Made by a program: the position numbers and the translations under genes. Under the pieces are notes generated by a model, which was not told the DNA's origin, searched no databases, and worked only from the letters and a program-made list of their open reading frames with translations. Positions 6,634-56,753 of a DNA stretch of 64,000 nucleotides are shown in pieces. Origin of the DNA: an uncultured Chloroflexia bacterium (GTDB lineage: Bacteria; Chloroflexota; Ktedonobacteria; Ktedonobacterales; JADMIN01). The stretch is from the NCBI GenBank assembly GCA_963718915.1, contig CAVRAI010000004.1, positions 704,504 through 768,503 of the forward strand. Reading direction: 5' to 3'. Numbering within the stretch: the stretch's first letter is position 1; each line of letters begins with the position of its first letter.

Positions 6634-6647
6634 GAGGGATATCCAGC

Positions 6648-7523: not shown

Positions 7524-7574
7524 GCCGAACAGCAAAGCGTGAAGGTCATTCCAAAAGGCGCTGGCGCCTGGGGG

Positions 7575-7655: not shown

Positions 7656-7943
7656 GCTTCCCCGAAGGATAAGAACTCAAGCGGAAATGTTGTAATCCGA
7701 GGGATAAACAACGCCCGGAACGCCCCACCAGGCCATCCGCTCATGGTCTGATGAAAACGTCCGGGCGTCCCAGGAGAGCGTGCATGCGATTGGGAAACCT
7801 CACTGCTCTGCTGTACTCTACCAAAGCGCGGCGCAGACCTCCGCAGAAAGTGACGCGCCCAGCGCAGAAGCAGCGCAGAACCCGCGCACGTTTCGCCACC
7901 TCGCAAATCCACTGACGCCAGAAACTGCCGGAAGGAGCGCCCC

Positions 7944-9146: not shown

Positions 9147-9190
9147 TGCGGGCGGTTGATGTGGTTTGGATCAGCATGCCGGAGCCAGAA

Positions 9191-11676: not shown

Positions 11677-12492
11677 TCACTCCCTACGTTGGCGTTGCAG
11701 GTAATACCACGGCAGCGCCAGACGCTCCACAATCGCCACCGAGGCGAAGAGCGCGATGCTCAGGAGCGCGGTGACGACGATGGCTGCCAACACCCCCGCC
11801 GTCGCGAAGGAATGTTGCTTGAGCTGCATGTAGAATCCCAGGCCCGCGCTTGCCCCGACATACTCGCCGAAGATCGCGCCGATGACGCTATACGCGATGG
11901 CGATGCGCACGCCCGAGAAGAGCGACGGCAGCGCGCCCGGCAGCCGCACCGACCAGAAGATGCGCACTGGCCCCGCGCCGAACGCACGAAACAGCCGGAT
12001 AAGCTCGGGGTCGGCGGAGCGCAGCCCATCCGCCAGCGCCACGACGATTGGGAAGAAGCAGACCAGCAGGACGACGATAGACTTCGAGACCAGCCCGAAC
12101 CCGAACCAGAGCACAAGCAGCGGCGCCAGCGTGATGATCGGGATCGTCTGCGACGCCACCAGCAGCGGATAGATCGCCCGCCGCAGCCATGGCGAGAAGT
12201 CGATCAGCGTGCCGAAGACAATCCCAGCTACCAGCGCCAGCGCGAAGCCAATCAGCGTCTCTTGCAGCGTCACCAGCATGTGTTGCCAGAGGATATCGCG
12301 CTGGCCCACCAGCACCCCCCAGACGGCGAGCGGCGTTGGCAGGATCTGCGCATCAATCGTCGGCTGGCTGGCGTACCACTGCCAGAGCAGCACGAGCGCC
12401 GCCAACAGCGCCAGGGCCGGGATAGTAGCCGCCATGGTGCGACGGGAGACTCGCCACCATCGTGCTATGGGCCACGCCGACAGAATGGGCAT
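11677..12492 (-). CDS. thiX: ABC transporter permease (NitT/TauT-type, ThiX-like)
   Basis: A multi-TM protein with the permease signature region (DGLRSADPELIRLFRAFGAG). I drop the first 94 R/P/A-rich codons of the listed ORF because they overlap the ATPase gene. Start is ATG 12492. Confidence 0.8.
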   Translation of the reverse strand: MPILSAWPIARWWRVSRRTMAATIPALALLAALVLLWQWYASQPTIDAQILPTPLAVWGVLVGQRDILWQHMLVTLQETLIGFALALVAGIVFGTLIDFSPWLRRAIYPLLVASQTIPIITLAPLLVLWFGFGLVSKSIVVLLVCFFPIVVALADGLRSADPELIRLFRAFGAGPVRIFWSVRLPGALPSLFSGVRIAIAYSVIGAIFGEYVGASAGLGFYMQLKQHSFATAGVLAAIVVTALLSIALFASVAIVERLALPWYYLQRQRRE

Positions 12493-12557
12493 CGCTCCAG
12501 TGTCTGTGGCGCTGGATGAAGCGCTCTTGGTGGTATCTGGTGAGTCATGCAGCGTCT

Positions 12558-13340
12558 TCAAGCCGCGCCTCCCGTCACCTCGGCGTCGAGCAGCGATGCC
12601 AGCAACTCCGCCTTGATCGCGACAATTTCCGGGCGCGCGAGCATCTCCAGCCGTCGCGGGCGTTCCAGCGGCACGGCGCGCTCCAGGCGGACGGTTCCGG
12701 GGCGCGGCGTGAGCACATAGATACGGTCGGATAGTAGCAGCGCCTCGTCGAGGTCGTGGGTGACGAGCAGGCACGTCGCGCCTAATCGCTCCCAGAGATC
12801 GGCAAGCCAGCGCTGCAAGCCAGTGCGGGTGAGGGCGTCCAGCGCGCCAAACGGCTCATCCAGCAGCAAGAGATTGTGGGCCGCCAGGACGGTTCGGGCG
12901 AAGGCGACCCGCTGGCGCATGCCGCCGCTGAGCGTGGCGGGCCAGGCGCGCTCGAATCCCGCCAGCCCAAACTCGGCGAAGAGGGCACGGGCGCGAGTCG
13001 CCGCCTCAGTCCGCGACACACCCTGCGTCTGGAGTCCGGCTATCGCGTTGCCGAGCGCGGTGCGCCAGGGGAGCAGCAGATCGCGCTGTGGCATGTAGCC
13101 TGCCCGCCCGAGCAGCCGTGCCTGTGTGTCGCCACGCAGGGCGACCGTGCCGGAGGTAGGTGTCTCCAGTCCGGCGAAGATGGAGAGCAGTGTCGTCTTG
13201 CCAGAGCCACTTGGCCCAACGAGTGCGACAAACTCGCCCTCATCCACATGCAGCGAGACGCGCTGAAGGGCGAGAAGATCAGCGCCACCAACGCGGTAGC
13301 GCATCGTGACCGCGCGCGCCTCTAACAGTGGTGTTCCCAT
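12558..13340 (-). CDS. thiZ: ABC transporter ATP-binding protein (ThiZ-like)
   Basis: Walker [10 protein letters not shown], signature LSGGMRQRV and Walker B LLLDEPFGALD. Start is ATG 13340, preceded by GGAGGG. Confidence 0.88.
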   Translation of the reverse strand: MGTPLLEARAVTMRYRVGGADLLALQRVSLHVDEGEFVALVGPSGSGKTTLLSIFAGLETPTSGTVALRGDTQARLLGRAGYMPQRDLLLPWRTALGNAIAGLQTQGVSRTEAATRARALFAEFGLAGFERAWPATLSGGMRQRVAFARTVLAAHNLLLLDEPFGALDALTRTGLQRWLADLWERLGATCLLVTHDLDEALLLSDRIYVLTPRPGTVRLERAVPLERPRRLEMLARPEIVAIKAELLASLLDAEVTGGAA

Positions 13341-13426
13341 CGCCTGCCCTCCAGATTGCCAGCACATTTCAGTGGCTTTATGTCAGTGCATCCGGGAGGT
13401 TGAGACAGACCCGCGAGGCGCGCACA

Positions 13427-13462: not shown

Positions 13463-13477
13463 ATCGTGTGAAGCGTT

Positions 13478-13566
<89 letters not shown>

Positions 13567-13783
13567 CCGTTGCGGTTGTTCAGTATTCGGTTGTCACATA
13601 GAGATGTACCATGTTTGCCCAAATGCGTCAAGCCAACGCATTGTGACTGGAACATAGATTCAAGTTATCCACCGCCTCTGTGGATATGCACCCTCAAATG
13701 TGGAAATCTTGTTCTAGTTGAATCACATGACGCGGAAACCTGGTTTCCAAAGCAGCGAGTCTGCGAAAGAAGAGTGGACTATC

Positions 13784-28149: not shown

Positions 28150-28757
28150 TAACGGCTCTCATCGTCCTCATTCGAGGGTGGGGTTCCAACCGGATCACCA
28201 ATGACAGCCAGGAGGTCGCCCTGGTTGACTGCCTGGCCTTTGCTCACGCGCAGACTCTTGACCATGCCCGCGCGAGGCGCAGGGAGATCGTTCTCCATTT
28301 TCATCGCTTCGAGCACAATGATGGCCTGGCCGCGCTCAACCTCAACACCTTCCTCGACGAGCAAGTTGGAGACAAGTCCCGGCATAGGGGCGCGGATATT
28401 CGCGTCGCCTGAGGCGTGCGCTCCGGCAGCCAGTGAGGCAAGCGCGCGTGCTCTCTCGTCGGCGAGGCGTACACGATACACCTGTCCGCGGACATGCACC
28501 TCAAAGACGCTCGATGTTCCGTCTTCCTCGTCAGCAGCCACTGGTTGCACAAAGATGTCGAAGGATTGAACGCCGAGGAGCAGACTATAGTGGCCAGCGT
28601 GATCAGAGGCGGCCTTTCCGGCTGAGAGCGCCGCGCCTCCGACAGGCTGCCAATCCACCGTCAGGTGATTGTCGCCTACCGTCACCTCACGCTGATGGCC
28701 ATCTTCCTGTAAGCCAATCGTGTAGGTCTGTTCGCCAATCGTGGCGACATAGCGCAT
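28149..28757 (-). CDS. Biotin/lipoyl attachment domain protein (BCCP-like)
   Basis: The C-terminus IVLEAMKMENDLPAPRAGMV has the biotinyl-lysine AMKM motif. Its stop overlaps the murF-alr start (TAATG). Confidence 0.8.
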   Translation of the reverse strand: MRYVATIGEQTYTIGLQEDGHQREVTVGDNHLTVDWQPVGGAALSAGKAASDHAGHYSLLLGVQSFDIFVQPVAADEEDGTSSVFEVHVRGQVYRVRLADERARALASLAAGAHASGDANIRAPMPGLVSNLLVEEGVEVERGQAIIVLEAMKMENDLPAPRAGMVKSLRVSKGQAVNQGDLLAVIGDPVGTPPSNEDDESR

Positions 28758-28822: not shown

Positions 28823-29674
28823 TCAAAATGTATAGTGGATCGTGACCGTGCCCTTGCCGCCATCGCTTGCTACGGTAATCGTAAAGTCCGCGAAAAAGGC
28901 TGAGCAGTTAATGGTAAATGGAACGGCGACGCTGCCTCCAGGATCGACCGAACCACTGGACTTGCCAAGCGCGATGGCCGTAGCCTTCGATGTTGTGACC
29001 GTGAAAGAAAGCGGTGTATCGCCGCTGTTAGTGACCTTGAAGGACTGTGTGCTATTACATTGCGAACCGTGAACGGTCATCGACGTCGTCGCAAGGGCCA
29101 GTTTGGGGCCAGCGGCGATGCTGGCCGTGACAGGGATATGAATGGACGTCTCGGTTGTGATGACGGTAACTTGCGCGGAATAACTTCCTGGCGACACATC
29201 AGCAGGCATCGCGACCACGCTGAGCGTCATTGTACCTCCAGGCGCGAGAGTTCCGCTGCGTGGCGTGATGTTGAGCCAGGCGACACTCGCCGTAGCATGC
29301 CATACTGCCGGGTCGGTACCGCTGTTGTTGACCTGAACATTGAGGTTGGTGCTGCTTCCTGATATCGCCTGGACCGTCAGCGCATTGGGTGTTGCCTGAA
29401 GGATATTGGCGTTTGGAATCGGCCCCAAGAAGGTCAGGTTTTTGTGCAGGAATCGATTTGCCTGCACACAGACTGTTCCCGGGCAGGCCGTAGGCTTTGC
29501 CAGCACCACCCCCAGGCCTCCAACCAGCGCCAGCACAAGTACCGCGAGCAGGACGAGGCGTGGCCAGAGACGTTTGCGCGGTTCACTTGCTTTATATGGG
29601 ACGCGCGAATCTGGTTGTCCAGGCATCCGACTGGCTGCGAAGGCGGGATAGTGCGCCGATGCTAGCGTCGGCAT
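28823..29674 (-). CDS. Membrane-anchored protein with two beta-sandwich (BACON/Ig-like) repeats
   Basis: N-terminal TM segment LVLLAVLVLALVGGLGVVLA. Followed by two repeats of the type W..ITPRSGTLAPGGTMTLSV...YSAQVTV and FKVTNSGDTPLSF...GSVDPGGSVAVPFTI. The domain family name is tentative. Confidence 0.7.
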   Translation of the reverse strand: MPTLASAHYPAFAASRMPGQPDSRVPYKASEPRKRLWPRLVLLAVLVLALVGGLGVVLAKPTACPGTVCVQANRFLHKNLTFLGPIPNANILQATPNALTVQAISGSSTNLNVQVNNSGTDPAVWHATASVAWLNITPRSGTLAPGGTMTLSVVAMPADVSPGSYSAQVTVITTETSIHIPVTASIAAGPKLALATTSMTVHGSQCNSTQSFKVTNSGDTPLSFTVTTSKATAIALGKSSGSVDPGGSVAVPFTINCSAFFADFTITVASDGGKGTVTIHYTF

Positions 29675-29713
29675 TGGTTGTTCACGTTGCCTGCCAGGCC
29701 TGGCAGACGATGG

Positions 29714-31570
29714 TTACTCCCCATACTCCCCATACTCCCCATACTCCCCATAGCGGCGGCCATCGCTGGCGCCTGGCTCGTGTCGGCCCGCTGGTCGAGA
29801 CGCAGGGCCGTTTGGCGCGTAGGATTGACCAACACTACTATAGGCATAACTTTCTGAGGCATAACTTTCTGAGGCGTAGCTATCCTGGGAGTTACGACGC
29901 GCTTGAGATGGTCTGCGCGGGCCAACATCCGCCCGACGAGGCAGTACCTCGCCCGTCAACAGATCCTCCCACTCGGGCGGTAGTTCGCCCTGCAAGGCGG
30001 GATTGGTCAGTCGCGGCAGCCCCAACTCCGTTGCCGAGAATCCGCCACGATAGCGCAGCGCCTCACTATGTGGGCCGCTCTGTCCCCAGTCGGCGCGCGA
30101 CATGTCATAGCCGTTATCCACTCGCGCGAGCCGTTGGTCGGTGTACTCTGAAGGGAAGTCGGTAGAGTCCGCTCTACTTGACCCACCTCGGCTGGGCGAA
30201 TTGTGGGCAAGACGCCAGTCATCGTCACGCGCGGCCTGGCGACGTGGCGCATTATCTGGCCGTGGAAAATCGTCCCCATAACCGCGTGACGCGCCGTTCT
30301 CGGCTGGCCATGCGTCATGTCTCCATTCGGGATCATCGCCAATCGGCGGCATCACCGGCGCGCTGGGTCCGCCCATTCCGCTGTCTGGCGGAGGCAATTG
30401 CGGGCGCGAGACCAGCGGGCGAGCAACTGGAGTCGCGGGAACACGCTCGGTATACTGGATACCGTCGGCTGCAGGCCACCCCTGTGACATGGGCGCTCCG
30501 GCCTGTTGCGCGCCATAACCATTCATCGGTGGAAAAGGCGGCTGCTGAGGCTGCATGGCTGGACCGGCGGGAGCCGGTAGTGCGCCTATGCGCGCGCCAG
30601 GGCCAATCGGACCAGGCGCGCCCCACGAGTCAGGAACGCCTGATTGAGCAGCTCCCTGTGGCATCCCCACGGACTGTGCGGATTGCCCTGGCGCCGGGAG
30701 CGCGGGTGGCATATGCGTTGGTGGCATGGCAGGCTGCTGCTTCAAGGTCGCATCTAGCGCCTGGGCCAGCGCCATTGCCGAAGGGAATCGGTCACCGGGA
30801 TTTTTCGACATCGCCTGCTGGATGATCGGGTCGAGCGCCTGGACGCCTGGTGGCAGTGATGGATCAACCTGCCCCAGACGCGGCGGTGGATAGTGCATGT
30901 GTGCGTCCCGCAGGTCTGCTGGCTTGGAGCCACTGAATGGTGGGCGTCCAGTGAGTGTGGCGAAGAGAATCGCGCCGAGGCTGTAAATATCACTTTGCTG
31001 CGTGAACTGGCCAGAGAATGACTCCGGCGCGAGATATTCGACAACGTCCACGCCTGAGCCTGAGTGATTCATGTCGAGTTGGCGAATGTCCCAGAGCATG
31101 CCAAAGTCGCCGAGAAGAACATGACGGCCTTCGAACAAGAAGACGTTGCTGGGCTTAAGATTGCCGTGAACCAGGCCAAGGCTGTGCGCATACGACAGTG
31201 CGCTTCCTAACTGATGAAAGAATGGAGCGACGTCACTGACGCCGAGACGGCCGCCCCGCGCGATCCAGTCACGCAGAGTGCCATCAGCCACCCAGGGTGT
31301 CGCGAGATAGAGGTAACCATTCTCTTCGCCACTGGCAACAACAGGCAAAATGTGTGGATGGCTGGCCAGCCGCGCCGCAGTCTGGATGATGTGCTGAAAG
31401 TTGGGGAGGAAACTGGGATATCGGGCAAATTCAGGATAGATAACCTTGATGATGACATCGCGACCATTCGCGGTGAGTGCCCGCGCACGATAGACCTCGG
31501 CGATGCCAGCGCTCGCAACTTGCTCGGTTAGCTGGTAGCCGCCCAACGTCCGGCCCTGCAGCCCTGCCAT
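29714..31570 (-). CDS. Ser/Thr-kinase-fold protein with HRD->HGN substitution and a long P/G/Q-rich tail (probable pseudokinase or atypical kinase)
   Basis: Start is ATG 31570, preceded by GAGGAG. The kinase fold is recognisable (VIIKVI, LVHGNLKPSNVFL, GDFGM, YLAPE). However, the Gly-loop is degenerate (VASAGIAEV) and the catalytic Asp is Asn. No TM or PASTA domain. The C-terminus carries SYASE x2 and YGE x4 tandem repeats. Confidence 0.8.
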   Translation of the reverse strand: MAGLQGRTLGGYQLTEQVASAGIAEVYRARALTANGRDVIIKVIYPEFARYPSFLPNFQHIIQTAARLASHPHILPVVASGEENGYLYLATPWVADGTLRDWIARGGRLGVSDVAPFFHQLGSALSYAHSLGLVHGNLKPSNVFLFEGRHVLLGDFGMLWDIRQLDMNHSGSGVDVVEYLAPESFSGQFTQQSDIYSLGAILFATLTGRPPFSGSKPADLRDAHMHYPPPRLGQVDPSLPPGVQALDPIIQQAMSKNPGDRFPSAMALAQALDATLKQQPAMPPTHMPPALPAPGQSAQSVGMPQGAAQSGVPDSWGAPGPIGPGARIGALPAPAGPAMQPQQPPFPPMNGYGAQQAGAPMSQGWPAADGIQYTERVPATPVARPLVSRPQLPPPDSGMGGPSAPVMPPIGDDPEWRHDAWPAENGASRGYGDDFPRPDNAPRRQAARDDDWRLAHNSPSRGGSSRADSTDFPSEYTDQRLARVDNGYDMSRADWGQSGPHSEALRYRGGFSATELGLPRLTNPALQGELPPEWEDLLTGEVLPRRADVGPRRPSQARRNSQDSYASESYASESYAYSSVGQSYAPNGPASRPAGRHEPGASDGRRYGEYGEYGEYGE

Positions 31571-31773
31571 AGCCTTCTCCTCACCACACAGCACATCCAC
31601 ATGCGCACTTCAGACGATTCCAGCGAAATTTCCCTGGGCTAGTATATCATGACTCCCTCTAACGCAATGCCCAAATGGCCCAAGATTGCCCGTATCTCCT
31701 ATGGGTACACAGGCTCTTTGCCCCTGCGGATGATAAGAGATAAAGGTGTTGCTGGCTGCGCGATAACGGCGTC

Positions 31774-42251: not shown

Positions 42252-43794
<1,543 letters not shown>

Positions 43795-43975
43795 GGGAGT
43801 ATCCAGGTCAGGAAACCTCTTCGGAGGCACCCTTGACCTCACTTCCATGTCGAGGTGCATGGTTGCCATTTGTGTGGTACCATGCATCGCAGAAACGTAT
43901 CTATTCGCATCATAGCGCAGGTTGCTTCTCACTCTTCGGTTGTCGCAGGAAGTCGTCCGGCGGCTTGCCAACTGC

Positions 43976-44049
43976 GGGCCTGTAGCTCAGCTGGTTAGAG
44001 CGCAGTCCTGATAAGACTGAGGTCCTCCGTTCGAGCCGGAGCAGGCCCA
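43976..44049 (+). tRNA. tRNA-Ile (anticodon GAU)
   Basis: Folded by hand. Acceptor GGGCCTG/CAGGCCC, anticodon loop CTGATAA, T-loop TTCGAGC. Confidence 0.92.
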
Positions 44050-44095
44050 CCCGCACATCGATAGTATGGTTCGCGATTTGGTCGCTTTGCCTTCT

Positions 44096-44168
44096 GGGGG
44101 CGTAGCTCAGTTGGGAGAGCATCTGGTTTGCATCCAGAGGGTCAGGGGTTCGAGTCCCCTCGTCTCCA
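44096..44168 (+). tRNA. tRNA-Ala (anticodon UGC)
   Basis: Acceptor GGGGGCG/CGTCTCC with G3:U70, anticodon loop TTTGCAT, T-loop TTCGAGT. Confidence 0.92.
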
Positions 44169-44249
44169 CCCATGTTGCCCAGGCAGCGCCTCCCAGCGTG
44201 ACCAGGTATCGATCGTGTGATTCACTCGCGAGTTGTGAGACGCGGGGGG

Positions 44250-44366
44250 ATTGGTGACTAGAGCGGAGGGGACACACTCGTTCCCATCCCGAACACGGTC
44301 GTTAAGCCCTCCAGCCCCCACGATACTGCAGGGGCAGCCCTGTGGGACAATAGGACGTTGCCACTC
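44250..44366 (+). rRNA. rrf: 5S ribosomal RNA
   Basis: Reads UUGGUGAC..GCGGAGGGGACACACUCGUUCCCAUCCCGAACACGGUCGUUAAGCCCUCCAGC...AGGACGUUGCCAC. This aligns block for block with Bacillus-type 5S as I remember it. It is enclosed by the GC stem CGCGGGGGG/CCCCCCGCG. Ends are +/- a few nt. Confidence 0.88.
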
Positions 44367-45763: not shown

Positions 45764-45933
45764 TATCGCGCACCATAATTGGAGTAGATGTTACGTGTGC
45801 GCCGGTCCCATAGCCGTTGCCGCTTCGCAAGGCCAGTGCTACACTGCCAGTGCTTTTCAGTCTTTTGTGGCCCATCTGCGCGACTCCAGGGCGGCCATTC
45901 CACGAGTGGAGAAGAACGATGCAGGAGGCGTCA

Positions 45934-48900
45934 ATGCCGAACCGCACTCGGCGTCGCCTGCGACCAGCTTTCGCTGCTATTCGGCCATACTCATCTGATG
46001 AGGTCGAGACGACCACCACTGCCGCGGCACGTCGGGTGAGCACGATTTCGGATCGTGTGTGGGGCTGGCTGGCACGCCGTGATCCCCTCTTCTGGGCGAT
46101 GGTCGGTATCGCGCTCGTCGCGCTGGTGTTACGGCTCTACGGCATCAACTGGGACGCTAATAATCACCTCCACCCCGATGAGCGTGAAATCGTCTTCAAG
46201 GCGATGTGTCTCTCATTTCCCGGTACGCCGCGAATTGGTAATTGCGATCCAGCCTATACGGGTCCGGGCTGGCTGCTTTCGCCAAATTCGCCCCTCAATC
46301 CGCACTTTTTTGCCTATGGTTCATTCCCGCTGTATCTGTTGGCCGCGGTCGCGCATGGTCTTGCCTGGATTACCCATCTTACCGGTGGGCGATTTCTGCC
46401 GCCAGATGGAGGAACCTGGGACGATTTCAATCACTTTACGCTGGTGGGTCGGGCGATTTCGGCAATATTCGACGCTGGTACCGTTCTGCTGGCTGGCCTG
46501 ATTACCCGTCGGCTCGCGGGCCGCTGGGCAGCGCTGCTGGCGGCGGCGTTTGTCGCGACAATCCCCTTCGAGGTGCAGGTCGCGCACTTCTACGCTGTGG
46601 ACACCCTAATGCTGTTTTTCGTCATGCTGACGCTCTACGGCTGCATGTTGCTCGTGCAGGGAGCGGGTTCACCAGCCTCGCGGGATCGCCTCGCGGCAGG
46701 CCAGTGGTGGGCATGGCGTCTGGGCGTGCTGATCGGCGTCGCGTATGCGCTGGCACTCGCCACAAAGGTGAGCGCGCTGCCGCTGGCGGTACCGATTCTT
46801 GTGGCTCTGGCGCTCTGCTGGTGGCGGCGAGGGATGGATTCCATGTTACTCGCGTTCATGGGAGTCGTCTCGACCGGCCTTATCGTATTTACGCTTGTCA
46901 GTCCCTATACGTTCCTCGATTGGAAGGAATTTCAGCAGCAGGTCACCGAGCAGACGATGCTCTCACAAGGCCAGCTGGACTACCCCTACGTGCGCCAGTT
47001 CGCGGATGCGACCAATTACATCTATCCTTTGCGGCAATTGTTGCTGTATGACATGGGTTTGCCGCTTGGGGTGCTCGGCCTTGCAGGCTTTGCCTGGGCA
47101 ACGAGCAAGCTCTGGCGCACTCTAAATACCGACTGGCTGATTCTTGTTTCGTGGCTGGCCGTCTACTTTGGTATTGTCGGCGGCGCATACATGAAGTTCA
47201 GCCGGTACATGCTCCCCGTCTTCACCGGGCTGGCAATCTGCGGCGCGGCGGCGCTTGCCGCATTGAGCGCGTGGGGGCTGCGTCGGCTACGCGCTATCAG
47301 CGAAAGTCAAGCGGAAGCTAAACAGCGACGCTGGTGGCGCCGCGATCCGTTCGCGCTGCCGATGGCGCGCTGGGCAACGACGCTCTGGGGTGTGCGCTGG
47401 TGGCGTGGGGTCTGTCTGGCTATCGCGCTAGGGGTGTTGGTGGCTTCCAGTTTTGCCACGCTTGCTCTGCTCAACATCTACAGCGAGCCGAATACCCGTG
47501 TGCAGGCATCCGTCTGGATCTATGACCACGTATCCGCTGGCTCGACGCTGACCAACGAGGTCTGGGACGATCCGCTCCCGATAGAAGCGCCGCCTGCGCG
47601 CGTCGACGCGCAGGGAGTTGGATATACCGCCAGTGGCGCGGTTATCAACCCATCGGAGTACCAGCAGATTGGCCTCAATCTGTATGACGATGACACGCAG
47701 CAGAAAGCCGTCCAACTGGCGCAGAGTCTCGCCAGCGCCAATGTTGTCGTCATCAGTAGCCAGCGGCTGGTCAAGTCCATCCCCAAACTGCCTGACCGCT
47801 ACCCTATGACCACGCGCTACTACGATCTGCTCTTCGCGGGCAAGTTGGGATTTCAAACTGGCGGCGCACTTCGAGAACCACCCAAACCTCCTGGGCATCA
47901 CGCTCGACGACAGCGGAGCGGACGAGAGCTTCTCGGTCTACGATCATCCGCCGGTCTGGATCTTCACACGCGAGGGTGCGGGTTTGACCCAGGCGCAGCT
48001 GACTCAGGAACTGACGAACGGCCTCTATTTGCCAGCGGCATCGCATCGCTCTGGCAGCCAGAAATCGCTGCTGCTCTCATCACAGGATGCGGCGGCGGAT
48101 AACCAGTCGCAGCCACTCGGCGTGCAGTTCCCGGCAAATAGCCTTGCCAATTCGATCCCATTGCTCTGGTGGCTGCTTATCATCGAACTCCTGGGCATTG
48201 TGAGTTTCCCGCTCGCCTTCAGCGCGTTTCCCGGATTGCGCGACCGTGGCTGGGGCTTGAGCAAGCTGCTTGGGCTACTCGTCCTGGCATGGGCCATCTG
48301 GCTGCCTTCCAGTCTGCATGTGTTGCCATTTGATCGCTGGGCAGTTGTCCTGATGTTCGGCGTGCTGGCGGCATTCGGCGCGCTTGTCGCCTGGCTACGA
48401 CGCGATGCCCTCTGGGCATTTATCCGGGCACGTTGGCGGCTACTCGTTATTGGCGAGGCGTTCTTTGTGGCGGCGTTCCTCTTCTTCGTCTGGATTCGCG
48501 CGCTCGACCCTGATCTCTGGCATATCTATCGCGGCGGCGAAAAGCCAATGGAGCTCGCCTTCCTGAACGGCATCCTACGCAGTCGCTTTATGCCGCCGCT
48601 TGATCCCTGGTTCAGTGGTGGCTATATCAACTACTACTACTACGGCCAGTATCTGATTGCCGTGCTCATCAAACTGACCGGCATCGCCCCAACTACTGCC
48701 TTCAATCTGGCGATTCCACTGCTGTTTGGCCTGACGTGTTCCGCTGCCTATTCGGTGGTTGCCGGGATGACCGGTCGCTGGTGGGCGGGTCTGATGGGTG
48801 GGCTTGGCCTGGCTGTCGTGGGCAATCTGGATGGTCTGCTGCAACTGATCGGCCAGCTTCAGGCATCGCTTGCCGGGCAGATTCCACCTGCCTTCGATTA

Positions 48901-50576
48901 CTGGCGTAGCAGTCGTGTCATCCCGTTTACGATCAACGAGTTCCCATTCTGGAGCTTCCTCTACGCCGATCTCCATGCTCATCTGATTGATCTGCCAATC
49001 GTCGTGTTGATTATCGCTGCCTGTGGCTCGCTTCTGCGTGGCGCGAGCGTCTTCGGACAACACTGGCGGTCGGTGGTTCCGACGCTGGCGGTCGTGGCGC
49101 TGGCGCTTGGGGCGGCATGGTGTACGAATACATGGGATTTGCCGACGTATGGCTTGCTGGTTGCGCTCGTACTGATGTTGCGGCTGTTCCCGAATGGAGG
49201 CGTGGGCTTCTGGCGGACGCTGAAGAGCCTCTCATGGTCCGCCATTCGCAATGTGGCGCTGGCCGTGGTCCTGACATTCGCAGGCGCATACGCGCTCTAC
49301 CTGCCATTCCACGCGAATTTCCAGAACTTCGTCAGCGGTACCGGGCCGGTCACCACGCCTACGAATCCCGCCCAGTTTGTTACGCTGTTCGGCATATGGC
49401 TCTTCCTGGTGGCGAGCTTCCTATTCCTCGAACTGTGGGATCGCGTCGAGCGTACATTTGGTGGCGAGGATCGAACTGGTCAGGCGCAGCGCCTCATCCT
49501 GCTCACGCTTGCAAGTATCGTTGTTCTGTTGCTGGCGTTTGCCATCAGCCTCAAAGTGCTGTTGCTCGTGCTGCTCGGCGCTGGCGCGTATCTCGCGCTT
49601 GGGAAGCCGCCACTCAGCGGTCAAACGGTTGACCTATCTGGTGATTTTGCTAGGCCTGGGGGTTGCCTTCGGCGTCGAAGTCATCTACGTACGCGACTTT
49701 CTGGATAACTCCGACTGGGAGCGGATGAACACGGTCTTCAAGTTCTACTATCAGGTGTGGACCCTGCTCTCGCTTGGAGGAATACTGGCGCTGACTCAGA
49801 TGCTCGGACGCATCTTCCCGATGCGCTCCACCGAGGCGACACAGCAAGATGGCGACGATGAGACTGGTCAGGAGTTGATAGAGGAAGAGGAGTCTTCAGG
49901 CCAGGTTGCGCCCTCACATCCTCGTGGCGTGGAGTGGGCAGGCGTTTTGCGCGGCGGCATGCGGATCGTATGGGTATTGGCATTCGCTGGTCTGCTCTTT
50001 GGGTCGTCGATCTTTCTGATCGAGGGCACAAAAGCGCGAGTGAGCGATCCCGCTGTTTGGGCCGCCGTGCAGCCGCCACCGGGTGGCGTTCAGCCACAAG
50101 GTCTCTCGCTAGATGGTATGGCTTATATGCGCGGTTGGTATCCAGGTGACTACGCAGCAATCACCTGGATCAATGACCATATCGCGGGCGCGCCAACTAT
50201 CGTGGAGGCGAGCAATGGCCCGTATGCGTGGTATAGCCGCGTCTCGATTTACACAGGACTGCCCGATGTGTTGGGCTGGAGCAGTCACGAATCACAGCAG
50301 CGTTACGGTGATCAGGTCTATGCGCGTCAGTCGGATGTGCAGACATTCTATGGATCCGAGGATCCCGCTGCCGCAGTGAACTTCTTGCGCGAGTACAGCG
50401 TCAAGTATGTCTACATCGGCGGCCTCGAGCGCACCTGTTATATGACCAATGACCAGGGAGGCTGTGTGCCAATGTCTGGCGCGGCGCTCGATAAATTCAC
50501 ATCACTGGCGCATGCGGGCGTATTGCGTGCGGTTTATCAGAATAGTGATGTGGTGATCTATCAGGTGGTTGGCTAA
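45934..50576 (+). pseudogene. ArnT/PMT-like (GT-C) + Chlor_Arch_YYY/DUF2298 fusion membrane protein, interrupted by two +1 frameshifts (or two sequencing indels)
   Basis: Three ORF fragments lie in successive frames: 45934 to ~47853, ~47853 to ~49603, and ~49603 to 50576. The sequence carries on sensibly across both junctions (..YYDLLFAGKLGF|KLAAHFENHPNLLGITLDDSGADESFSVYDHPPVWIF.. and ..LLGAGAYLALG|SRHSAVKRLTYLVILLGLGVAFGVEVIYVRDF..). The N-terminal part has LHPDEREIVF. The C-terminal part is paralogous to 50576-53200, including INYYYYGQYL. Start is ATG 45934, preceded by AGGAGG. Confidence 0.65.
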
Positions 50577-53200
50577 TGGGCGAGACGATTTTCTGGTGGT
50601 TGGCAATTGAAGTGATCGGTCTCGCTGGGCTGCCCCTGACCGCGCTGGTCTTCGCCAATCTGCCTGATCGCGGCTGGTCGCTGGCCAAACCGTTCAGCTT
50701 GCTTATGCTTGGCTGGCTGATCTGGTTTCCCCTCACCCTCATCTCGGCGCTGCCATTCAACCGTGTTTGGATTGTACTGACACTACTCCTCTATCTCGCG
50801 GGGAACGTTGCGCTTGTGTGGAGGGTGGCGCGCGTCAGAAATGCGCTCGCAGCGCTTTTTGCACGGCAGCGCGGCTATCTCATTCTCACCGAACTCCTCT
50901 TTATCGTGGCGTTCGCGGCGATGGTCTGGGAGCGGTCCTTTACTCCCGCAGTGGTGGACACCGAAAAATTTATGGATGTGGCGTTCCTCTCGTCGATCTG
51001 GCGTGCTCCCCACCTGCCACCACCTGACCCATGGCTCAGTGGCCAGTCTATTAACTACTACTACTTTGGCCACTATCTGATAGCGCTGCTCGCAAAGCTG
51101 CTTGGCACTGTTCCCGGCACGGCCTTCAATCTCGGCATTGGCCTCATCTTTGCGCTCACGGCGGTGGCGGTGTTTGGTGTCGCCGCTAATCTCTTCGCCG
51201 TGGTGTCTCCCACTAGGCGAGGATTCTGGCGCGGGCTGGTTGGATTGACCTCGGCGTTCTTTGTGCTGATTCTCGGCAACCTGAACGGGGCGCAGGTCTG
51301 GTGGCAGAACGCGCAGGATCTGGCGCGCCAGTTGCCAGCGCTCTACAGCAGCCCGTGGGCATGGTTACTCCATCGCGATGTCTGGACGCGCTACGACTGG
51401 TGGGCGCCTTCGCGAGTCATCCCCAACACGATCAACGAGTTTCCGGCGTTCAGTTTTGTTCTTGCCGATCTACACGCGCATGTGCTGGCGCTACCCTTTG
51501 CGACTGTGGCTATCGGTCTTGCGTGCAACCTGCTGCTTGCGCGTAGGTCAGGCATTCATGCATTTGGTGATGGGCGTCTGAGTTTGCTCGTACTTCTGGC
51601 TTGCGGTGTGGCGATAGGTGGGCTGTATGCCATCAATGGATGGGACTTACCCACCTATCTGGGACTGGCAGTGCTGGCGCTCGCGATTCAGCAGTGGCTG
51701 GCGCATGAGCGGCGGTTCAGCAAACCGCTCTTCATCGATTTCCTGACGGTCGCACTGTTACTCTGCGCGCTGTGTTTTGTCGCATACTTGCCATTCTATC
51801 GCGACTATTCCTCGCCAGGAGAAGGCGTGGGGCTGGTTCCATTTAATGCGCGCACTCCTATAGGCTACGAAGTGGCTATTTTCGGTCTGCCCCTGTTTGT
51901 GCTGCTCTCGCTGGCGACGGTGCGATTGGTGAAGCGCTGGCCTGCGCCGGGCGCGCAGATCACTTTGGCAACTGGAGTGGTGCTGGCATTGGGATCTTTG
52001 CTTGTGCCCAACGCGACACTCTGGACGTTACTCGGGGCACTGCTGGTGGTAGCTGTCTGCGCCTATCTAGCGGCTGGTCTACTGGGGCTGCGGTTAGGTA
52101 GTGGTCTACCTGCGGATGCGCTCTACCCCCACGAGGATGCGCGCGAGAATGAACGGTTGCGCGCCAGGGCGTGGCTCTGGTGCCTCAGCGGTACGGCTGT
52201 CGCGCTGATTGCCGCCTGCGAGCTAGTCTTTCTCCGAGATGTGTTTGCTGGGGGAGATCAGGGCCCGCTTGGCTCGGCCTTCCGAATGAACACCGTCTTC
52301 AAACTGTATTATCAAGCATGGCTGCTGCTGGGCATCGTCGCGGGGCCAGCGCTCTGGTGGTTGCTTGCTGGCGCATTTCGCTGGTTGCGCACTGCTTTCG
52401 TTGCGCATGATTGGGCGGAGCCACAACCGGCTCTAGTGCGCGTGGCGCCGGGCGCGCAGATGCTTCATGGTGAGGCTGGCTCGCTGGCGACCCTCGCCGC
52501 GAGCGACCCCTATGCGGATCTCTCGGCGGCTGTTCCACCAAATAGTTCAATATCGGCGGGAACCGATACACATGAGCCACCGTCCATACACAGTGGGCAT
52601 AGACGCACTGGGCCAGATGCGTTGCGCGCACTCGGTGCGGGTGGTATCGTACTCTGGATACTTGTGTGTGCGGCGCTGGTTGGCGCGGCTACGATCTATC
52701 CCATCATGGCGACCGCGGCCCGTACGGCTAATTTCACGCTGTCACGCTCGCTTGACGGCACGGCCTATATGAGCACCGATCTGGTGAATCAGGGCGATGC
52801 GCAGGCCATTGCGTGGCTCAATGCCCACGTGACGGGTGATGCGGTTATCGTCGAAGCCGCGCAATATGACGAGTACACGCACAATGGTCGTGTCTCGGCC
52901 TTTACGGGGCTGCCAACGCTGATTGGTTGGGGAGGCCACGAGCTACAGTGGCGTTACAACTGGTTGCAGCAGCCAGGGCGAGGCAATCTCATTACACAGC
53001 GGTTGAATGCTGTGGCGCAAATTTATACCGATACCAGCGAGCAGCAGGTGTTGAAGCTGCTCCATCAATACTCAGTGAGCTATGTATATGTTGGCGCGGC
53101 GGAACGCCAGTTATATCCATCGGCTGACCTGGGTCGTTTCGCGACGTTTCTCCGCATGGTCTATCATTCCGCTGATGTGACCATCTACGCGGTTCCATAA
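50576..53200 (+). CDS. Chlor_Arch_YYY / DUF2298 family polytopic membrane protein
   Basis: 874 aa with many TM segments. Contains SINYYYFGHYLIALLAKL, VIPNTINEFPAFSFVLADLHAHV and MNTVFKLYYQAW. The ATG overlaps the upstream stop (TAATG). Confidence 0.85.
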   Translation: MGETIFWWLAIEVIGLAGLPLTALVFANLPDRGWSLAKPFSLLMLGWLIWFPLTLISALPFNRVWIVLTLLLYLAGNVALVWRVARVRNALAALFARQRGYLILTELLFIVAFAAMVWERSFTPAVVDTEKFMDVAFLSSIWRAPHLPPPDPWLSGQSINYYYFGHYLIALLAKLLGTVPGTAFNLGIGLIFALTAVAVFGVAANLFAVVSPTRRGFWRGLVGLTSAFFVLILGNLNGAQVWWQNAQDLARQLPALYSSPWAWLLHRDVWTRYDWWAPSRVIPNTINEFPAFSFVLADLHAHVLALPFATVAIGLACNLLLARRSGIHAFGDGRLSLLVLLACGVAIGGLYAINGWDLPTYLGLAVLALAIQQWLAHERRFSKPLFIDFLTVALLLCALCFVAYLPFYRDYSSPGEGVGLVPFNARTPIGYEVAIFGLPLFVLLSLATVRLVKRWPAPGAQITLATGVVLALGSLLVPNATLWTLLGALLVVAVCAYLAAGLLGLRLGSGLPADALYPHEDARENERLRARAWLWCLSGTAVALIAACELVFLRDVFAGGDQGPLGSAFRMNTVFKLYYQAWLLLGIVAGPALWWLLAGAFRWLRTAFVAHDWAEPQPALVRVAPGAQMLHGEAGSLATLAASDPYADLSAAVPPNSSISAGTDTHEPPSIHSGHRRTGPDALRALGAGGIVLWILVCAALVGAATIYPIMATAARTANFTLSRSLDGTAYMSTDLVNQGDAQAIAWLNAHVTGDAVIVEAAQYDEYTHNGRVSAFTGLPTLIGWGGHELQWRYNWLQQPGRGNLITQRLNAVAQIYTDTSEQQVLKLLHQYSVSYVYVGAAERQLYPSADLGRFATFLRMVYHSADVTIYAVP

Positions 53201-53215
53201 GTCAGGAGTGAGTCT

Positions 53216-55981
53216 ATGGCTCGAAAGAGTAACAGCGCTGAAGGCGGCGGGTCTCGGCATATGAGCGCTGCGAACATCTATCGGTCGACCCAGTCGGCGT
53301 CTGAGGCTGCCTCGGTTGATGCGGCGCTATCGCTAACAAACGCAGAGATAGATGCTCCTGAAGAAGATGTAGCACAAGATGATGCTGTGCCTGTTCTGAC
53401 ATCCATCTATGATCGTACGCCAGTCCGCGAACGACTCGAATATCAGGCGCGACAGATGTGGGACTACATCCGATCTATGCGGCTTGAGCAGTGGCTCTGG
53501 ATCGGCGTAATTCTGCTGGCGACGATTTTGCGCTTCTGGGATTTGGGCGCAAAACCGCTTCATCATGACGAGAGCATGCATGCGTTTTTCTCGTTGACAT
53601 TCGCTCGTAATCCTGCGAGCTATGAGTATGATCCATTGCTCCATGGGCCGTTTCAGTTCCATGCTGAAGGCTTCATTTTTATGGTGATACTGGCTGCTGA
53701 GCGTATTTTTGGCGTTGGTGGCGCGGCTGGGAACCCATGGATCAACGATGCGACTGCCCGAATCTTACCAGCGATATTTGGCGTCGGAATCGTCGTGCTG
53801 CCACTTGGCCTGCGGCGCCAGCTTGGCCGCATTGGCGCGCTGGTTGCCGCGCTGCTGCTGGCGGTCTCGCCCACTTTCGTTTACTTCTCTCGCTTCCTGC
53901 GCGAAGACATTTACTTCAACTTCTTCATGTTCGCGGTGGTGATCTGTGCGGTGCAATATGCTCACAAGCGCACTATTCGCTGGATAGTAGGTCTTTTTCT
54001 CTCGGCCATCTTAGCGTATGCCACCTTTGAAGGCATCTACCTGACCTTGGTCATCTTCGCCTCGTTCCTGGTGCTGCTCGTGCTCTGGGAACTCTCCTAC
54101 AGTCTGGCGCGTCGCCTGCCAAAGGAGTTGACGCGACGCGAGCGGCTCTTCTTCAGTCGAGCGGGGCTGCTGCTGGTAGCAGGCGGCATCGGTGGTATTC
54201 TGGCCTACATCGGCCTGCACATCCTGAACAACCTCAGCACCTATATCACCACGCATACTGCCCAGACAGATATCCAGATCGTTCAATTGGAAAACACGAC
54301 GGTGCTGGTTCTGCTCTATCTGAGTATCATTGTCGCCATCACGGTCATTGGCGTCTTGCTCTGGCAAATCTCGCGTGATGATAGCCGTGTCAGCTTTGAG
54401 GGCGAGCCATACGATGACGCCGACGAAGAACACGTGCCAGGTAAGTCGTTTTCCAATCGGCTCGAGGCGATCTTTACCGCGCCTGGACGGCGGATCGCGG
54501 CCATTCGCGAGCGCATCGATCCCGACGAGAAGCCCTTCCTGCATATGTTGCTTGGGATTAGTTGGGTGCACTGGTTCGTTGGGATTGTCGCGGCATGGGT
54601 GGTTTTTGCTGCCCTTTACTGGGTGCTGCCCCCTGGTCCTCAGGGCAATCTGACATGGGGGCAGGGCTTCCAGATTGGTGTCGGCAGGGGCGTCTGGCAG
54701 GGCCTCTATTACTGGTTGCAACAACAACAGATCGCTCGTGGTGGGCAGCCGATCTATTACTACATGTTGCTGCTGCCACTCTACGAGCAGCTTGCCATCG
54801 TCTTTGGCATTGGGGGCGCGGTCTATGCGCTATTCCGCCCGACTCGCTTCCGCCTCTTCCTGGTCTGGTGGTTTGTTGTCTCCATGGGCCTGTATTCCTG
54901 GGCAGGGGAGAAGATGCCGTGGCTCTCGATCCACATTCTGCTGCCGTTGATGTTGCTGGCGGCGATTATGATCGAGCGGCTGATTGAGGCATGCATCGAT
55001 CTCTCGTGGGATGTTCGGCTACAGGGAGCGCGCGCGCTGCTCTTGCGCCCGGCGGAACAGGTTCAATTGGCCACCGAAGCAAGTCTCAACGCGAGCAGTT
55101 CGGGTGACATAGCCACCGAGCAGAGCCGGTTCTCTGAATCCAGTGCGGATAGGGAAAATGATATCGTCAGAGAACAGGTGCAACACAACCCCTGGAACCC
55201 ACCTGCCTTCTTCATATCCATCCAGCGGTTCTTGACGCCGGTAGGGCGGGTTATTCAGCGCGTGAAACGTGCAGTTGCCTGGCGCTCCGTCGGAACCATT
55301 GCGACGGCAGCGCTGGCGCTGGCGCTCTTCATCCCGATGATTCATAGTATGGTCGAGCTCGCCTACGTGGAACCAGCGGATGGTCCACAAGAGATGATGA
55401 CCTATGTGCAGACGACGCCAGATGTCACTGCGGCGATGGCGAAGATCAACGCTGCGGATCAGAAGCTCCATGCAGGTAATCACCAGCTACAGGTATGGGT
55501 GGGCCAGGGCGAGGAATGGCCAATGTACTGGTATCTGCGCGACTATTACCTGGATCCCCATCCGGGAACGTATGTAACCTTTGATCCAGCCAGCCTTACT
55601 GATAAGTTTGCCCAGGGCGTGCCTGCTCCCGATGTGCTCATCCTGCTGCCGTCCGACGCGGCCACGTTTATGGCGGCGCATCCTGGCTATCATGCGAAGC
55701 AATACAAATTGCGCTCGTGGTGGGATGAGTCGTATAAGCTGCCGCTTTGCAGCGCGACGGTCAAATCAATGTGTACGACGTCCGCGGATTGGGGAACTGG
55801 TGTCGGGCTAGGTAACTACCTGAGCTACGGCAGCCAGCCTCCCGCCAACGCGAAGTTCGATCTGGGGCGGACCGTGAATCGGCTCTGGAACTGGCTCTGG
55901 TACCGCCAGCCACTGGGTGATGTCAATGGCTCGTACGATTTTACGCTGGTCGTTCGCGATGGACTTCCTATTCAACCATAG
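53216..55981 (+). CDS. TIGR03663-like (Agl23-like) GT-C-fold polytopic membrane protein
   Basis: 921 aa. Contains LGAKPLHHDESMHAFFSLTF..YEYDPLLHGPFQFH followed by many TM segments. AGGAG lies upstream of the ATG. The family assignment is from memory of the motif. Confidence 0.8.
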   Translation: MARKSNSAEGGGSRHMSAANIYRSTQSASEAASVDAALSLTNAEIDAPEEDVAQDDAVPVLTSIYDRTPVRERLEYQARQMWDYIRSMRLEQWLWIGVILLATILRFWDLGAKPLHHDESMHAFFSLTFARNPASYEYDPLLHGPFQFHAEGFIFMVILAAERIFGVGGAAGNPWINDATARILPAIFGVGIVVLPLGLRRQLGRIGALVAALLLAVSPTFVYFSRFLREDIYFNFFMFAVVICAVQYAHKRTIRWIVGLFLSAILAYATFEGIYLTLVIFASFLVLLVLWELSYSLARRLPKELTRRERLFFSRAGLLLVAGGIGGILAYIGLHILNNLSTYITTHTAQTDIQIVQLENTTVLVLLYLSIIVAITVIGVLLWQISRDDSRVSFEGEPYDDADEEHVPGKSFSNRLEAIFTAPGRRIAAIRERIDPDEKPFLHMLLGISWVHWFVGIVAAWVVFAALYWVLPPGPQGNLTWGQGFQIGVGRGVWQGLYYWLQQQQIARGGQPIYYYMLLLPLYEQLAIVFGIGGAVYALFRPTRFRLFLVWWFVVSMGLYSWAGEKMPWLSIHILLPLMLLAAIMIERLIEACIDLSWDVRLQGARALLLRPAEQVQLATEASLNASSSGDIATEQSRFSESSADRENDIVREQVQHNPWNPPAFFISIQRFLTPVGRVIQRVKRAVAWRSVGTIATAALALALFIPMIHSMVELAYVEPADGPQEMMTYVQTTPDVTAAMAKINAADQKLHAGNHQLQVWVGQGEEWPMYWYLRDYYLDPHPGTYVTFDPASLTDKFAQGVPAPDVLILLPSDAATFMAAHPGYHAKQYKLRSWWDESYKLPLCSATVKSMCTTSADWGTGVGLGNYLSYGSQPPANAKFDLGRTVNRLWNWLWYRQPLGDVNGSYDFTLVVRDGLPIQP

Positions 55982-56017
55982 CATAGGCCTGGCGCTGAAC
56001 AGAGAGGTGGCGTGCTG

Positions 56018-56753
56018 ATGAACCAACAGACGCACGCTGAACAGGCGCCGCTGGACATGCTGGAGGAGCGCATCGGCGCCTCCTTCAGCGACAGTACGCT
56101 GCTTGTCCGCGCGCTGACCCATCATTCAATCTGCCCGCAGACGGCACAGCGCGACGCCTATGACACGCTGGAGTTTCTCGGCGATGCGCTTATCAGCGCC
56201 TATGTCGTGGAGCACCTCTTTCAGGCCTATCCCGATGCGACCGAGGGCGAGTTGACCGCGCTGAAGTCGGAGGTGGTCAGCCGGAGGGTGTTTGCGCAGA
56301 TTGGGCTAGGCCTTGGCCTCATGGAGTTCATCCGCGCTGATCCAGCCAGCCTGCGCACCTTTAATGATCGTTCGCGCGAGTCGCTGTGCGCTGACGTGCT
56401 GGAAGCGTTGGTTGGCGCGATCCACCTGGATGCCGGACGGGCGGCGGGCGAAGATTTTTGTCGGTCGGTTCATTCTGCCGGTTATTCCTGAGGTGCGAGC
56501 GACCCTAGGCGAACGCAATCCCAAGGGCGCGCTCCAGCAGCATGTCTTACGTCAGTCGGGGCAACTTCCACGCTATGAAGTGCTCGATGAGCGTGGTGAG
56601 AGTAACGACCGCAGCTATCTTGTCGGCGTCTTCGCGGGAGATCGCCTGCTTGGGCGCGGCGAGGGCAGCAGCATTAAAGCGGCTGGCAGAGAGGCGGCTC
56701 GTGCGGCGCTCGCAGGCGAATTTCCCAATGGCAACGGGCCATTCACAGAATAA
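56018..56753 (+). pseudogene. rnc: Ribonuclease III, interrupted by one +1 frameshift (or a sequencing indel)
   Basis: The catalytic domain lies in one frame (DTLEFLGDALISAYVVEHLF..CADVLEALVGAIHLDAG). The dsRNA-binding domain lies in the next frame (AKIFVGRFILPVIPEV..NPKGALQQHVLRQSGQLPRYEVL..SSIKAAGREAARAALA). The junction is at about 56441-56452. Confidence 0.7.

Follow-up and report, generated by a model that had tools for sequence, protein, structure and literature searches.

A precedent for the type of sugar transfer considered here is AglS of Haloferax, an outer-face dolichyl-phosphate-mannose transferase that acts downstream of the GT2 synthase AglD and the flippase-associated protein AglR (PMC3871713). 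Agl23 of Haloarcula hispanica (HhAgl23) was described as a putative hexose-P-dolichol flippase; purified HhAgl23 translocated M5GN2-PP-Dol in proteoliposomes, yeast rft1-delta was rescued, and neither a GT-C fold nor a YYY partner was discussed in that work (PMC11182771). Here, a bacterial locus encoding an Agl23 relative beside YYY proteins was analyzed. It is a 10-kb plus-strand block at positions 45934-55981 of a 64,000-nt stretch (hereafter, the window) from a Ktedonobacteria-type (Chloroflexota) genome, and its three consecutive genes encode four very large membrane GT-C-like modules. The modules form two pairs, each composed of a PMT-like module and a YYY module. It is moderately probable that these two pairs constitute an extracytoplasmic glycosylation machine that delivers sugars from polyprenyl phosphates to an acceptor in the cell envelope.

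The YYY modules are located in gene 2 and in the C-terminal two thirds of gene 1. The first-pass annotation, which was made by reading the sequence, had assigned both genes to the YYY family and regarded them as paralogs over the whole YYY domain. The family assignment was confirmed by DUF2298 and TIGR03662 scores over the curated cutoffs. Gene 2 matched TIGR03662 ('Chlor_Arch_YYY') with 538.9 bits (cutoff 300.25) and DUF2298 with 353.5 bits. Gene 1 is split over three reading frames in the deposited sequence (segments a, b and c). Segment b gave 336 bits with DUF2298 (profile positions 1-436) and 343.3 bits with TIGR03662 (positions 4-466), and segment c gave 205.2 bits with TIGR03662 (positions 469-726) and covered DUF2298 profile positions 426-488. 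The two YYY modules were aligned end to end with 32% identity (E 1e-71), and their paralogy over the whole length was thereby confirmed. All motifs quoted in the annotation were found, namely INYYYYGQYL and INYYYFGHYL, TINEFPFWSF... and TINEFPAFSF..., MNTVFKFYYQVW and MNTVFKLYYQAW, LHPDEREIVF, and HHDESMHAFF. Segment b contains the motifs GEKPME, PPLDPW, INYYYYG and TINEFP...ADLHAH.

Comparison of 26 YYY modules revealed a short list of invariant positions: E130, M133, P149, D151, Y161-163, G165, N185, E288-F289-P290, D298, H300, H302, D357, P406, R570, N572 and F575. The polar residues among them are E130, D151, E288, D298, H300, H302, D357, R570 and N572. Judging from the helix pattern of the AlphaFold2 models and from the arginine-rich alternate loops, the invariant residues of the YYY and PMT-like modules probably lie on the outer face of the membrane.

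The GT-C-like nature of these proteins, which had been proposed in the annotation, was supported by structure searches for both the YYY protein and the Agl23-like protein. The AlphaFold2 model of gene 2 (pLDDT 81, pTM 0.86) contained about 16 predicted transmembrane helices followed by an AglB-like C-terminal domain, and its significant Foldseek matches were GT-C enzymes only: Archaeoglobus fulgidus AglB (E-value 2e-5), DPY19 (2e-5), STT3 (4e-4) and AftA (2.5e-3), the last of which had the top TM-score. The C-terminal domain was matched by structure to the C-terminal globular domain of AglB-S2 (3vu0; E 0.04, TM-score 0.54). A profile built from 34 C-terminal domains of YYY modules (five lineages) gave the same 3vu0 as its sole match other than triosephosphate isomerase, at a non-significant E-value of 0.16; the triosephosphate isomerase matches were spurious. 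Thus, two weak but independent signals, one from structure and one from the profile, point to an AglB-like C-terminal domain. The string ...VxEA...RVSxFTGLPTxxGWxxHExQWR is conserved in this domain, with G, A, W, E, G, G, R, G and E invariant.

The remaining two modules are PMT-like. The N-terminus of gene 1 matched Pfam PMT with 42.5 bits (gathering threshold 22.7) and PMT_2 with 29 bits (threshold 26.1), so the ArnT/PMT-like module that had been noticed in the first reading was retained. Its HPDER motif (D82-E83, nt 46177-46182) was invariant at D82 and E83 in 19 PMT-like partner modules from five groups, in which R67, G129, R173, Q215, H218 and R424 were invariant as well. The loop carrying D82-E83 may be extracytoplasmic, as suggested by the arginine-rich N-terminus preceding it. 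Downstream of the GT-C part, segment a enters a soluble domain and ends with ...ADESFSVYDHPPVWIF; this domain carries on beyond the first frameshift site.

Gene 3 matched TIGR03663 with 246.2 bits (cutoff 126.25), the model being matched in two stretches, and was also matched by PMT and PMT_2. The TIGR03663/Agl23-like assignment therefore holds. The current name of TIGR03663 is 'flippase activity-associated protein Agl23', and homologs in the database are named Agl23 by NCBI. The protein contains an HHDES motif (D118-E119, nt 53567-53572) and an HGP motif, and D118, E119, H143, G144, P145, R182, R201, R226 and R229 were invariant in 38 Agl23-like sequences. An N-terminal DE dipeptide, an HGP tripeptide and conserved arginines are traits of the TIGR03663 family. 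The N-terminus of gene 3 is disordered, and the protein has an added C-terminal domain and a long helical insertion (approximately residues 307-394). The best Foldseek matches of its AlphaFold2 model (pLDDT 74) were STT3A/B, ArnT, Pmt4, Pmt1-Pmt2, AglB and ALG12, and a comparison of the Agl23-like profile with PDB sequences gave nothing meaningful. In the model, D118-E119 opens the helix that follows the first transmembrane helix, behind the arginine-rich N-terminal segment. This is the canonical GT-C catalytic position, and by the positive-inside rule it would face outward. The H-x-DE motif had been described as opening a predicted external loop; the D-E pair does start the first helix after the first transmembrane helix and is invariant in all surveyed partners. 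Between gene 3 and the N-terminal module of gene 1, only the first transmembrane helix and the D-E region were found to be in common (E 1e-3).

The association of these families was studied across genomes. When species-representative genomes were scanned with the YYY alignment, 79 loci were obtained; they were annotated with three hidden Markov models built here (YYY, Agl23-like and gene 1 N-terminal module). The 46 loci that had 3 kb or more on each side were treated as informative, and in 45 of these, from five or more lineages, a PMT_2-like module was fused or adjacent to YYY. Therefore, it may be concluded that the recurring unit is a PMT_2-like module, of either the HPDER or the Agl23 HHDES type, combined with a YYY module. 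In Ktedonobacteria-like genomes, the order PMT-like-YYY fusion, YYY, Agl23-like was invariant in all 21 loci long enough to judge, and the same triad was present in one Caldilineae locus and in another Chloroflexota locus. In Actinomycetota/Thermoleophilia, the four modules (Agl23-like, YYY, PMT-like and YYY) are separate genes, and the full triad was found in four of four loci. Dehalococcoidia mostly have the fusion alone, Patescibacteria have PMT-like genes next to a YYY gene, and in both groups the YYY and PMT-like modules occurred with no Agl23-like gene nearby. The TIGRFAM curators reportedly noted the co-occurrence of TIGR03662 and TIGR03663. As to the conserved co-occurrence expected in the first-pass annotation, that of YYY with PMT_2-like modules proved to be near-universal in the loci surveyed, whereas the full three-family set was lineage-restricted.

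The YYY family is large, with 6,929 relatives at E<=1e-3 among 1.84 billion representatives of clusters at 50% identity. At least ten giant proteins of 2.4-2.7 kaa with the architecture PMT-like-YYY-YYY, i.e., gene 1 fused to gene 2, were among the top matches (P0385-P0404). A YYY-YYY tandem protein also exists (P0439). Two homologs of genes 2 and 3 (P0137 and P0279, 71-76% identity) from a 5-kb contig are labelled 'Nitrososphaerota archaeon'; given their similarity to Ktedonobacterales proteins, this label is probably a binning error.

Neighboring genes differed between lineages. Two small GT2 genes are also conserved in six Actinomycetota loci (L049, L055, L056, L057, L072 and L077); their best NCBIfam matches, all sub-threshold, were polyprenyl-phosphate glycosyltransferases, namely ArnC, PgfS, haloarchaeal dolichyl-phosphate hexose transferase, PpgS and AglJ. 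The Actinomycetota clusters also keep a CrtI/amine-oxidase-like flavoprotein and a TIGR00374 'flippase-like' membrane protein. No such GT2, flavoprotein or flippase-like neighbors were found within 10 kb in the window and in the Ktedonobacteria-like loci. The Actinomycetota cluster genes are located at 4067-9715 and 16618-20315 in L056, and certain Actinomycetota loci add GT4, epimerase/dehydratase and FkbM methyltransferase genes. In the Patescibacteria locus L080 (6249-8323 and 13261-14295), the PMT-like and YYY genes are flanked by genes for the undecaprenyl-diphosphate synthase UppS, a flavoprotein of the same family as the actinomycetotal one, and a polyprenyl synthetase. This single occurrence may point to a connection with the synthesis or modification of the carrier lipid.

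In the proposed mechanism, one operon would supply four GT-C-fold modules working as two pairs, in each of which a PMT_2-like module with the D-E catalytic-loop motif would be combined with a YYY module. Pair A would be the one fused inside gene 1, and pair B would consist of the YYY protein of gene 2 and the Agl23-family protein of gene 3, whose genes appear to be translationally coupled. The proteins would reside in the cytoplasmic membrane in such a way that both the C-terminal domains and the conserved motifs with acidic residues and histidines point outward. On that side, sugars would be taken from polyprenyl-phosphate carriers and passed to an extracytoplasmic acceptor of the envelope, which could be a glycoprotein or a wall polysaccharide. 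Gene 3 would be the bacterial counterpart of archaeal Agl23 and may present or translocate the lipid-linked donor, besides or instead of transferring the sugar.

A number of observations weigh against this mechanism. No gene for a polyprenyl-phosphate-sugar synthase was found within 10 kb in Ktedonobacteria and Dehalococcoidia, and the neighbors in these groups are housekeeping genes (coaBC, rnc and queA; ligA, pth and eno). The only activity reported in the Agl23 family is translocation of a lipid-linked glycan, not sugar transfer, and the literature searched contained no enzymatic or genetic data for the bacterial members or for any YYY protein. The GT-C similarity is one of fold, and the query-normalized global TM-scores to solved GT-C structures were low (0.26-0.37). 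At the sequence level, comparison of the full-length YYY profile with PDB sequences gave nothing meaningful and no oligosaccharyltransferase, and hhalign detected no relationship between the YYY and Agl23-like families.

As for function in general, the first-pass annotation knew of no defined biochemical role for the bacterial pair. No functional literature on DUF2298, TIGR03662 or the 'YYY domain' was found in the literature searched, and for YYY the statement stands; TIGR03663, in contrast, has an assigned archaeal activity. The possibility raised there, that searches would lead to a family with an already assigned function, was thus realized in part, through the translocation activity of archaeal Agl23.

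This activity underlies a different division of labor, in which gene 3 would serve solely to flip or scramble polyprenyl-(di)phosphate-linked glycans, and transfer would be carried out only by the YYY and PMT-like modules. It is a possible arrangement, albeit a rather unlikely one. Besides the proteoliposome and rft1-delta results, it is favored by the NCBIfam placement of gene 3 in a family named for flippase activity and by the constant position of gene 3 after a YYY gene in the Ktedonobacteria-like triad. However, the gene 3 model has the fold of a GT-C glycosyltransferase, and a pure scramblase would have no need of the invariant D-E at the canonical catalytic position, the HGP motif and the invariant arginines. 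Moreover, the Actinomycetota clusters hold a separate flippase-like gene beside Agl23, and the Dehalococcoidia and Patescibacteria systems have YYY and PMT-like modules with no Agl23-like gene nearby.

It was also considered that the YYY proteins might be divergent oligosaccharyltransferases of the STT3/AglB/PglB type, which would transfer glycans en bloc to envelope proteins while the PMT-like partner adds or primes sugars. AglB was indeed the top full-length structure match (7e9s and 3wak), STT3 was matched too, and the C-terminal domain resembles the AglB-S2 globular domain by structure and by weak profile similarity. In addition, YYY contains a T-I-x-E string with the invariant E288 ahead of a transmembrane helix, which is reminiscent of the TIXE motif in external loop 5 of oligosaccharyltransferases. 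However, T285 and I286 are not invariant across phyla, DPY19 scored as well as AglB, and AftA had the top TM-score. About 16 transmembrane helices are predicted in YYY vs 13 in oligosaccharyltransferases. Because no WWDYG motif was found in the alignment of the 34 YYY C-terminal domains and Pfam STT3 had no match in the YYY protein, YYY falls outside the oligosaccharyltransferase family as it is defined. This alternative was judged unlikely.

A bolder form of the proposed mechanism is speculative, and we would not expect it to be correct. In it, YYY would be an unrecognized GT-C family with an AglB-like C-terminal acceptor-binding domain and would act as an obligate two-module enzyme together with its PMT_2-like or Agl23-like partner. 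The archaeal Agl23 'flippase' phenotype would then reflect the donor-handling half of such an enzyme, and the system would perform sequon-independent (non-N-X-S/T) envelope glycosylation in Chloroflexota, Actinomycetota, Patescibacteria and Archaea.

Pair A is encoded by gene 1, whose 4643 nt (45934-50576) cannot be divided evenly into codons; the gene was read in frame 1 to approximately 47853, in frame 2 to approximately 49603 and in frame 3 to 50576, and a codon-usage (coding-potential) scan delineated the same three segments. The first-pass description of a three-gene block was therefore accurate for genes 2 and 3, which are intact, but not for gene 1 as a single open reading frame (ORF), and the size range of about 870-1550 aa given there applies to gene 1 only after frame correction. 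At site 1, intact orthologs read GFKLAAHF in the protein alignment. The DNA alignment with L002, a syntenic metagenomic contig of 85% DNA identity that served as the reference for indels and for dN/dS (the ratio of nonsynonymous to synonymous substitution rates), placed a 1-nt insertion at 47854. Deletion of one base per site gave a stop-free gene 1 protein of 1546 aa. A search with this protein returned 689 homologs, the best of which were intact proteins of about 1545 aa with the PMT_2 + DUF2298 architecture from Ktedonobacterales metagenome-assembled genomes (MAGs), with up to 92% identity.

The frame breaks are very probably assembly indel errors rather than signs of pseudogenization because the orthologs are intact, dN/dS is low, the housekeeping gene rnc is also shifted, and the operons of other long-read MAGs are shredded. 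The dN/dS values relative to L002 were 0.065, 0.062 and 0.121 for segments a, b and c of gene 1, 0.119 for gene 2 and 0.105 for gene 3, i.e., all parts of the operon are under purifying selection. In rnc, an insertion splits the gene into an RNase III-domain ORF and a double-stranded RNA-binding domain ORF (by Pfam), while in L001 and L002 the gene is unbroken and encodes 244 aa. In the long-read 'MFD' MAG loci L005, L014, L037 and L050, the same operon lies in up to 15 frame fragments, and every short-read ortholog is intact. The window itself probably stems from a long-read MAG, as suggested by proteins 100% identical to those of genes 2 and 3 on one 1.05-Mb contig. The organism thus probably makes an intact 1546-aa gene 1 protein.

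If gene 1 were instead a genuine, recently inactivated pseudogene, the system would be decaying or reduced to genes 2 and 3. The deposited sequence does contain two frame-disrupting insertions in gene 1, and no further frameshift was detected in the rest of the window (about 53 kb) by the coding-potential frame scan and Pfam, which have limited sensitivity. Nevertheless, the stop-free corrected frames, the dN/dS of 0.06-0.12 in all three segments, like that of genes 2 and 3, the third 1-base insertion in the T5 run of rnc 6 kb away, the many frame breaks in the same genes of other long-read MAGs of the clade and the intact short-read orthologs make inactivation distinctly improbable. Two overlapping ORF pairs suspected of being frameshifts were each resolved into two distinct genes (Maf and a GluRS-like gene; an ABC permease and an ATPase). 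Programmed +1 frameshifting at a TCAAAC hexamer near both sites was rejected because the true site 2 precedes the hexamer by about 20 nt, the hexamer is about as frequent as expected by chance (19 occurrences vs 15.9), and the orthologs are unshifted.

The weakest of the alternatives, that the GT-C-like scaffold serves a non-glycosyltransferase function such as recycling of the carrier lipid, scrambling of lipids, or acting as a polymerase or ligase of lipid-linked polymers, agrees with the remote fold similarity (10-14% identity), with the absence of any known YYY activity in the literature searched and with translocation by Agl23, the sole assayed relative, but it is very unlikely since the D-E motif and the invariant acidic residues and histidines are in keeping with the conventions of GT-C catalytic sites and, in Actinomycetota, the accompanying ArnC/DPM1-like GT2 genes suggest a logic of donor synthesis and donor use.

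The features of the locus are listed in the table. The signs of translational coupling described in the annotation were present: the gene 2 ATG overlaps the gene 1 stop in TAATG at 50574-50578, and an AGGAG stands inside the 15-nt gap before 53216. Promoter and terminator scans revealed nothing exceeding chance. In the window and in close relatives, the operon is flanked by housekeeping genes, with coaBC upstream and rnc, queA and a DUF4870 gene downstream.

Table. Coordinates of the operon features and of the flanking rnc gene in the window
Feature	Position	Strand	Description
AGGAG ribosome-binding site, gene 1	45923..45927	+	Read from the sequence; 6 nt before ATG 45934
Gene 1 segment a	45934..47853	+	aa 1-640 of the corrected protein; PMT/PMT_2-like GT-C module, then soluble domain
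Frameshift site 1	47851..47854	+	1 extra base, GGATTT[C]AAACTG: C47854 or one T of the TTT run
Gene 1 segment b	47855..49603	+	End of the soluble domain, linker, first ~470 positions of the YYY (DUF2298/TIGR03662) module
Frameshift site 2	49601..49605	+	1 extra base, GGGAA run in CTTGGGAAGC; orthologs read LALGSRHSAVKRLTY
Gene 1 segment c	49605..50576	+	Remainder of YYY (RMNTVFKFYYQVW), putative extracytoplasmic C-terminal domain, TAA stop
Gene 2	50576..53200	+	Intact ORF; stand-alone YYY protein, 874 aa
AGGAG ribosome-binding site, gene 3	53204..53208	+	Within the 15-nt gene 2/gene 3 gap
Gene 3	53216..55981	+	Intact ORF; TIGR03663/Agl23-family GT-C protein, PMT_2-like, 921 aa
rnc (RNase III), flanking, outside the system	56012..56753	+	1-nt insertion at ~56454 in a T5 run

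Several other features of the window were noted. Immediately upstream of the block, an rRNA operon (42252-44366, plus strand) has the order 16S, tRNA-Ile(GAT), tRNA-Ala(TGC), 5S and contains no 23S gene, the distance from tRNA-Ala to 5S being 78 nt. The same order was found in the independent long-read MAG locus L005 (1666-3803), and in four other relatives 5S lies upstream of coaBC (e.g., L001, 8336-8452). Because L005 and the four other relatives agree, the arrangement lacking 23S looks real rather than the result of a local misassembly. On the minus strand, a Ser/Thr protein kinase ORF (29714-31609) ends in a single in-frame stop and is followed by a BACON/Ig-like ORF (28823-29713); the region 28823-31609 may hold either two neighboring genes or a single gene interrupted by an in-frame stop. 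An 885-aa ORF (25501-28158, minus strand) joins the middle and C-terminal domains of a Mur ligase to a complete alanine racemase, an unusual pairing of two peptidoglycan-precursor enzymes. A thiamine pyrophosphate riboswitch (13469-13580, minus strand; 61 bits, gathering threshold 54.3) is located upstream of ABC transporter genes (11677-13382).

The families themselves are already catalogued, with homologs labelled 'DUF2298 domain-containing protein' and Agl23 at NCBI, and the window holds an ordinary ortholog set, orthologous to hundreds of database entries. Three points were absent from the literature searched: that YYY is GT-C- and AglB-like, that it is almost obligately paired or fused with PMT_2-like modules in different phyla, and what this implies for Agl23. 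The analysis places the large DUF2298/YYY family in the GT-C fold and identifies a small set of invariant acidic residues and histidines. The pairing offers a testable hypothesis for envelope glycoconjugate assembly in many Chloroflexota, Actinomycetota and Patescibacteria. The probable assembly errors in gene 1 and rnc would lead annotation pipelines to call pseudogenes.

Compared with known systems, the operon resembles the mycobacterial Emb/Aft set in having several large GT-C enzymes, which in the Emb/Aft case transfer sugars from polyprenyl phosphate to a wall polysaccharide at the outer face. Among the YYY matches, AftA reached the highest TM-score (0.37/0.48); AftD was matched too. However, the families are different, and here nothing points to arabinose or to a wall-polysaccharide acceptor. 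DPY19 C-mannosyltransferase, a Dol-P-Man-dependent GT-C enzyme, matched the YYY model (Foldseek 2.2e-5) about as well as AglB did; it is a eukaryotic protein with 10-12% identity and no match to the AglB-like C-terminal domain. The oligosaccharyltransferases STT3/AglB/PglB (GT66) gave the best full-length fold matches of the YYY protein, whose C-terminal domain resembles the globular one of AglB, whereas YYY has no detectable sequence relationship to them, no WWDYG motif and more predicted transmembrane helices.

The PMT/ArnT enzymes (Pfam PMT/PMT_2; GT39/GT83) are approached by the N-terminus of gene 1 and by gene 3, both of which score over the gathering thresholds and carry D-E at the start of what would be the first extracytoplasmic loop; Pmt4, Pmt1-Pmt2 and ArnT match gene 3 structurally. 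They differ from these modules in that the scores here are marginal (27-42 bits), no MIR domain was detected by Pfam, the soluble C-terminal domain (...ADESFSVYDHP...) is distinct, and the module is fused or obligately adjacent to YYY. Agl23 of H. hispanica has a family relative in gene 3, which scores over the family cutoff, has the invariant DE and HGP and the conserved arginines and stands next to TIGR03662 genes. Gene 3 differs in being a bacterial protein of 921 aa with a disordered N-terminus, a helical insertion and an extra C-terminal domain. The analysis also suggests that archaeal Agl23, hitherto regarded as a flippase, deserves re-examination as a member of a GT-C pair.

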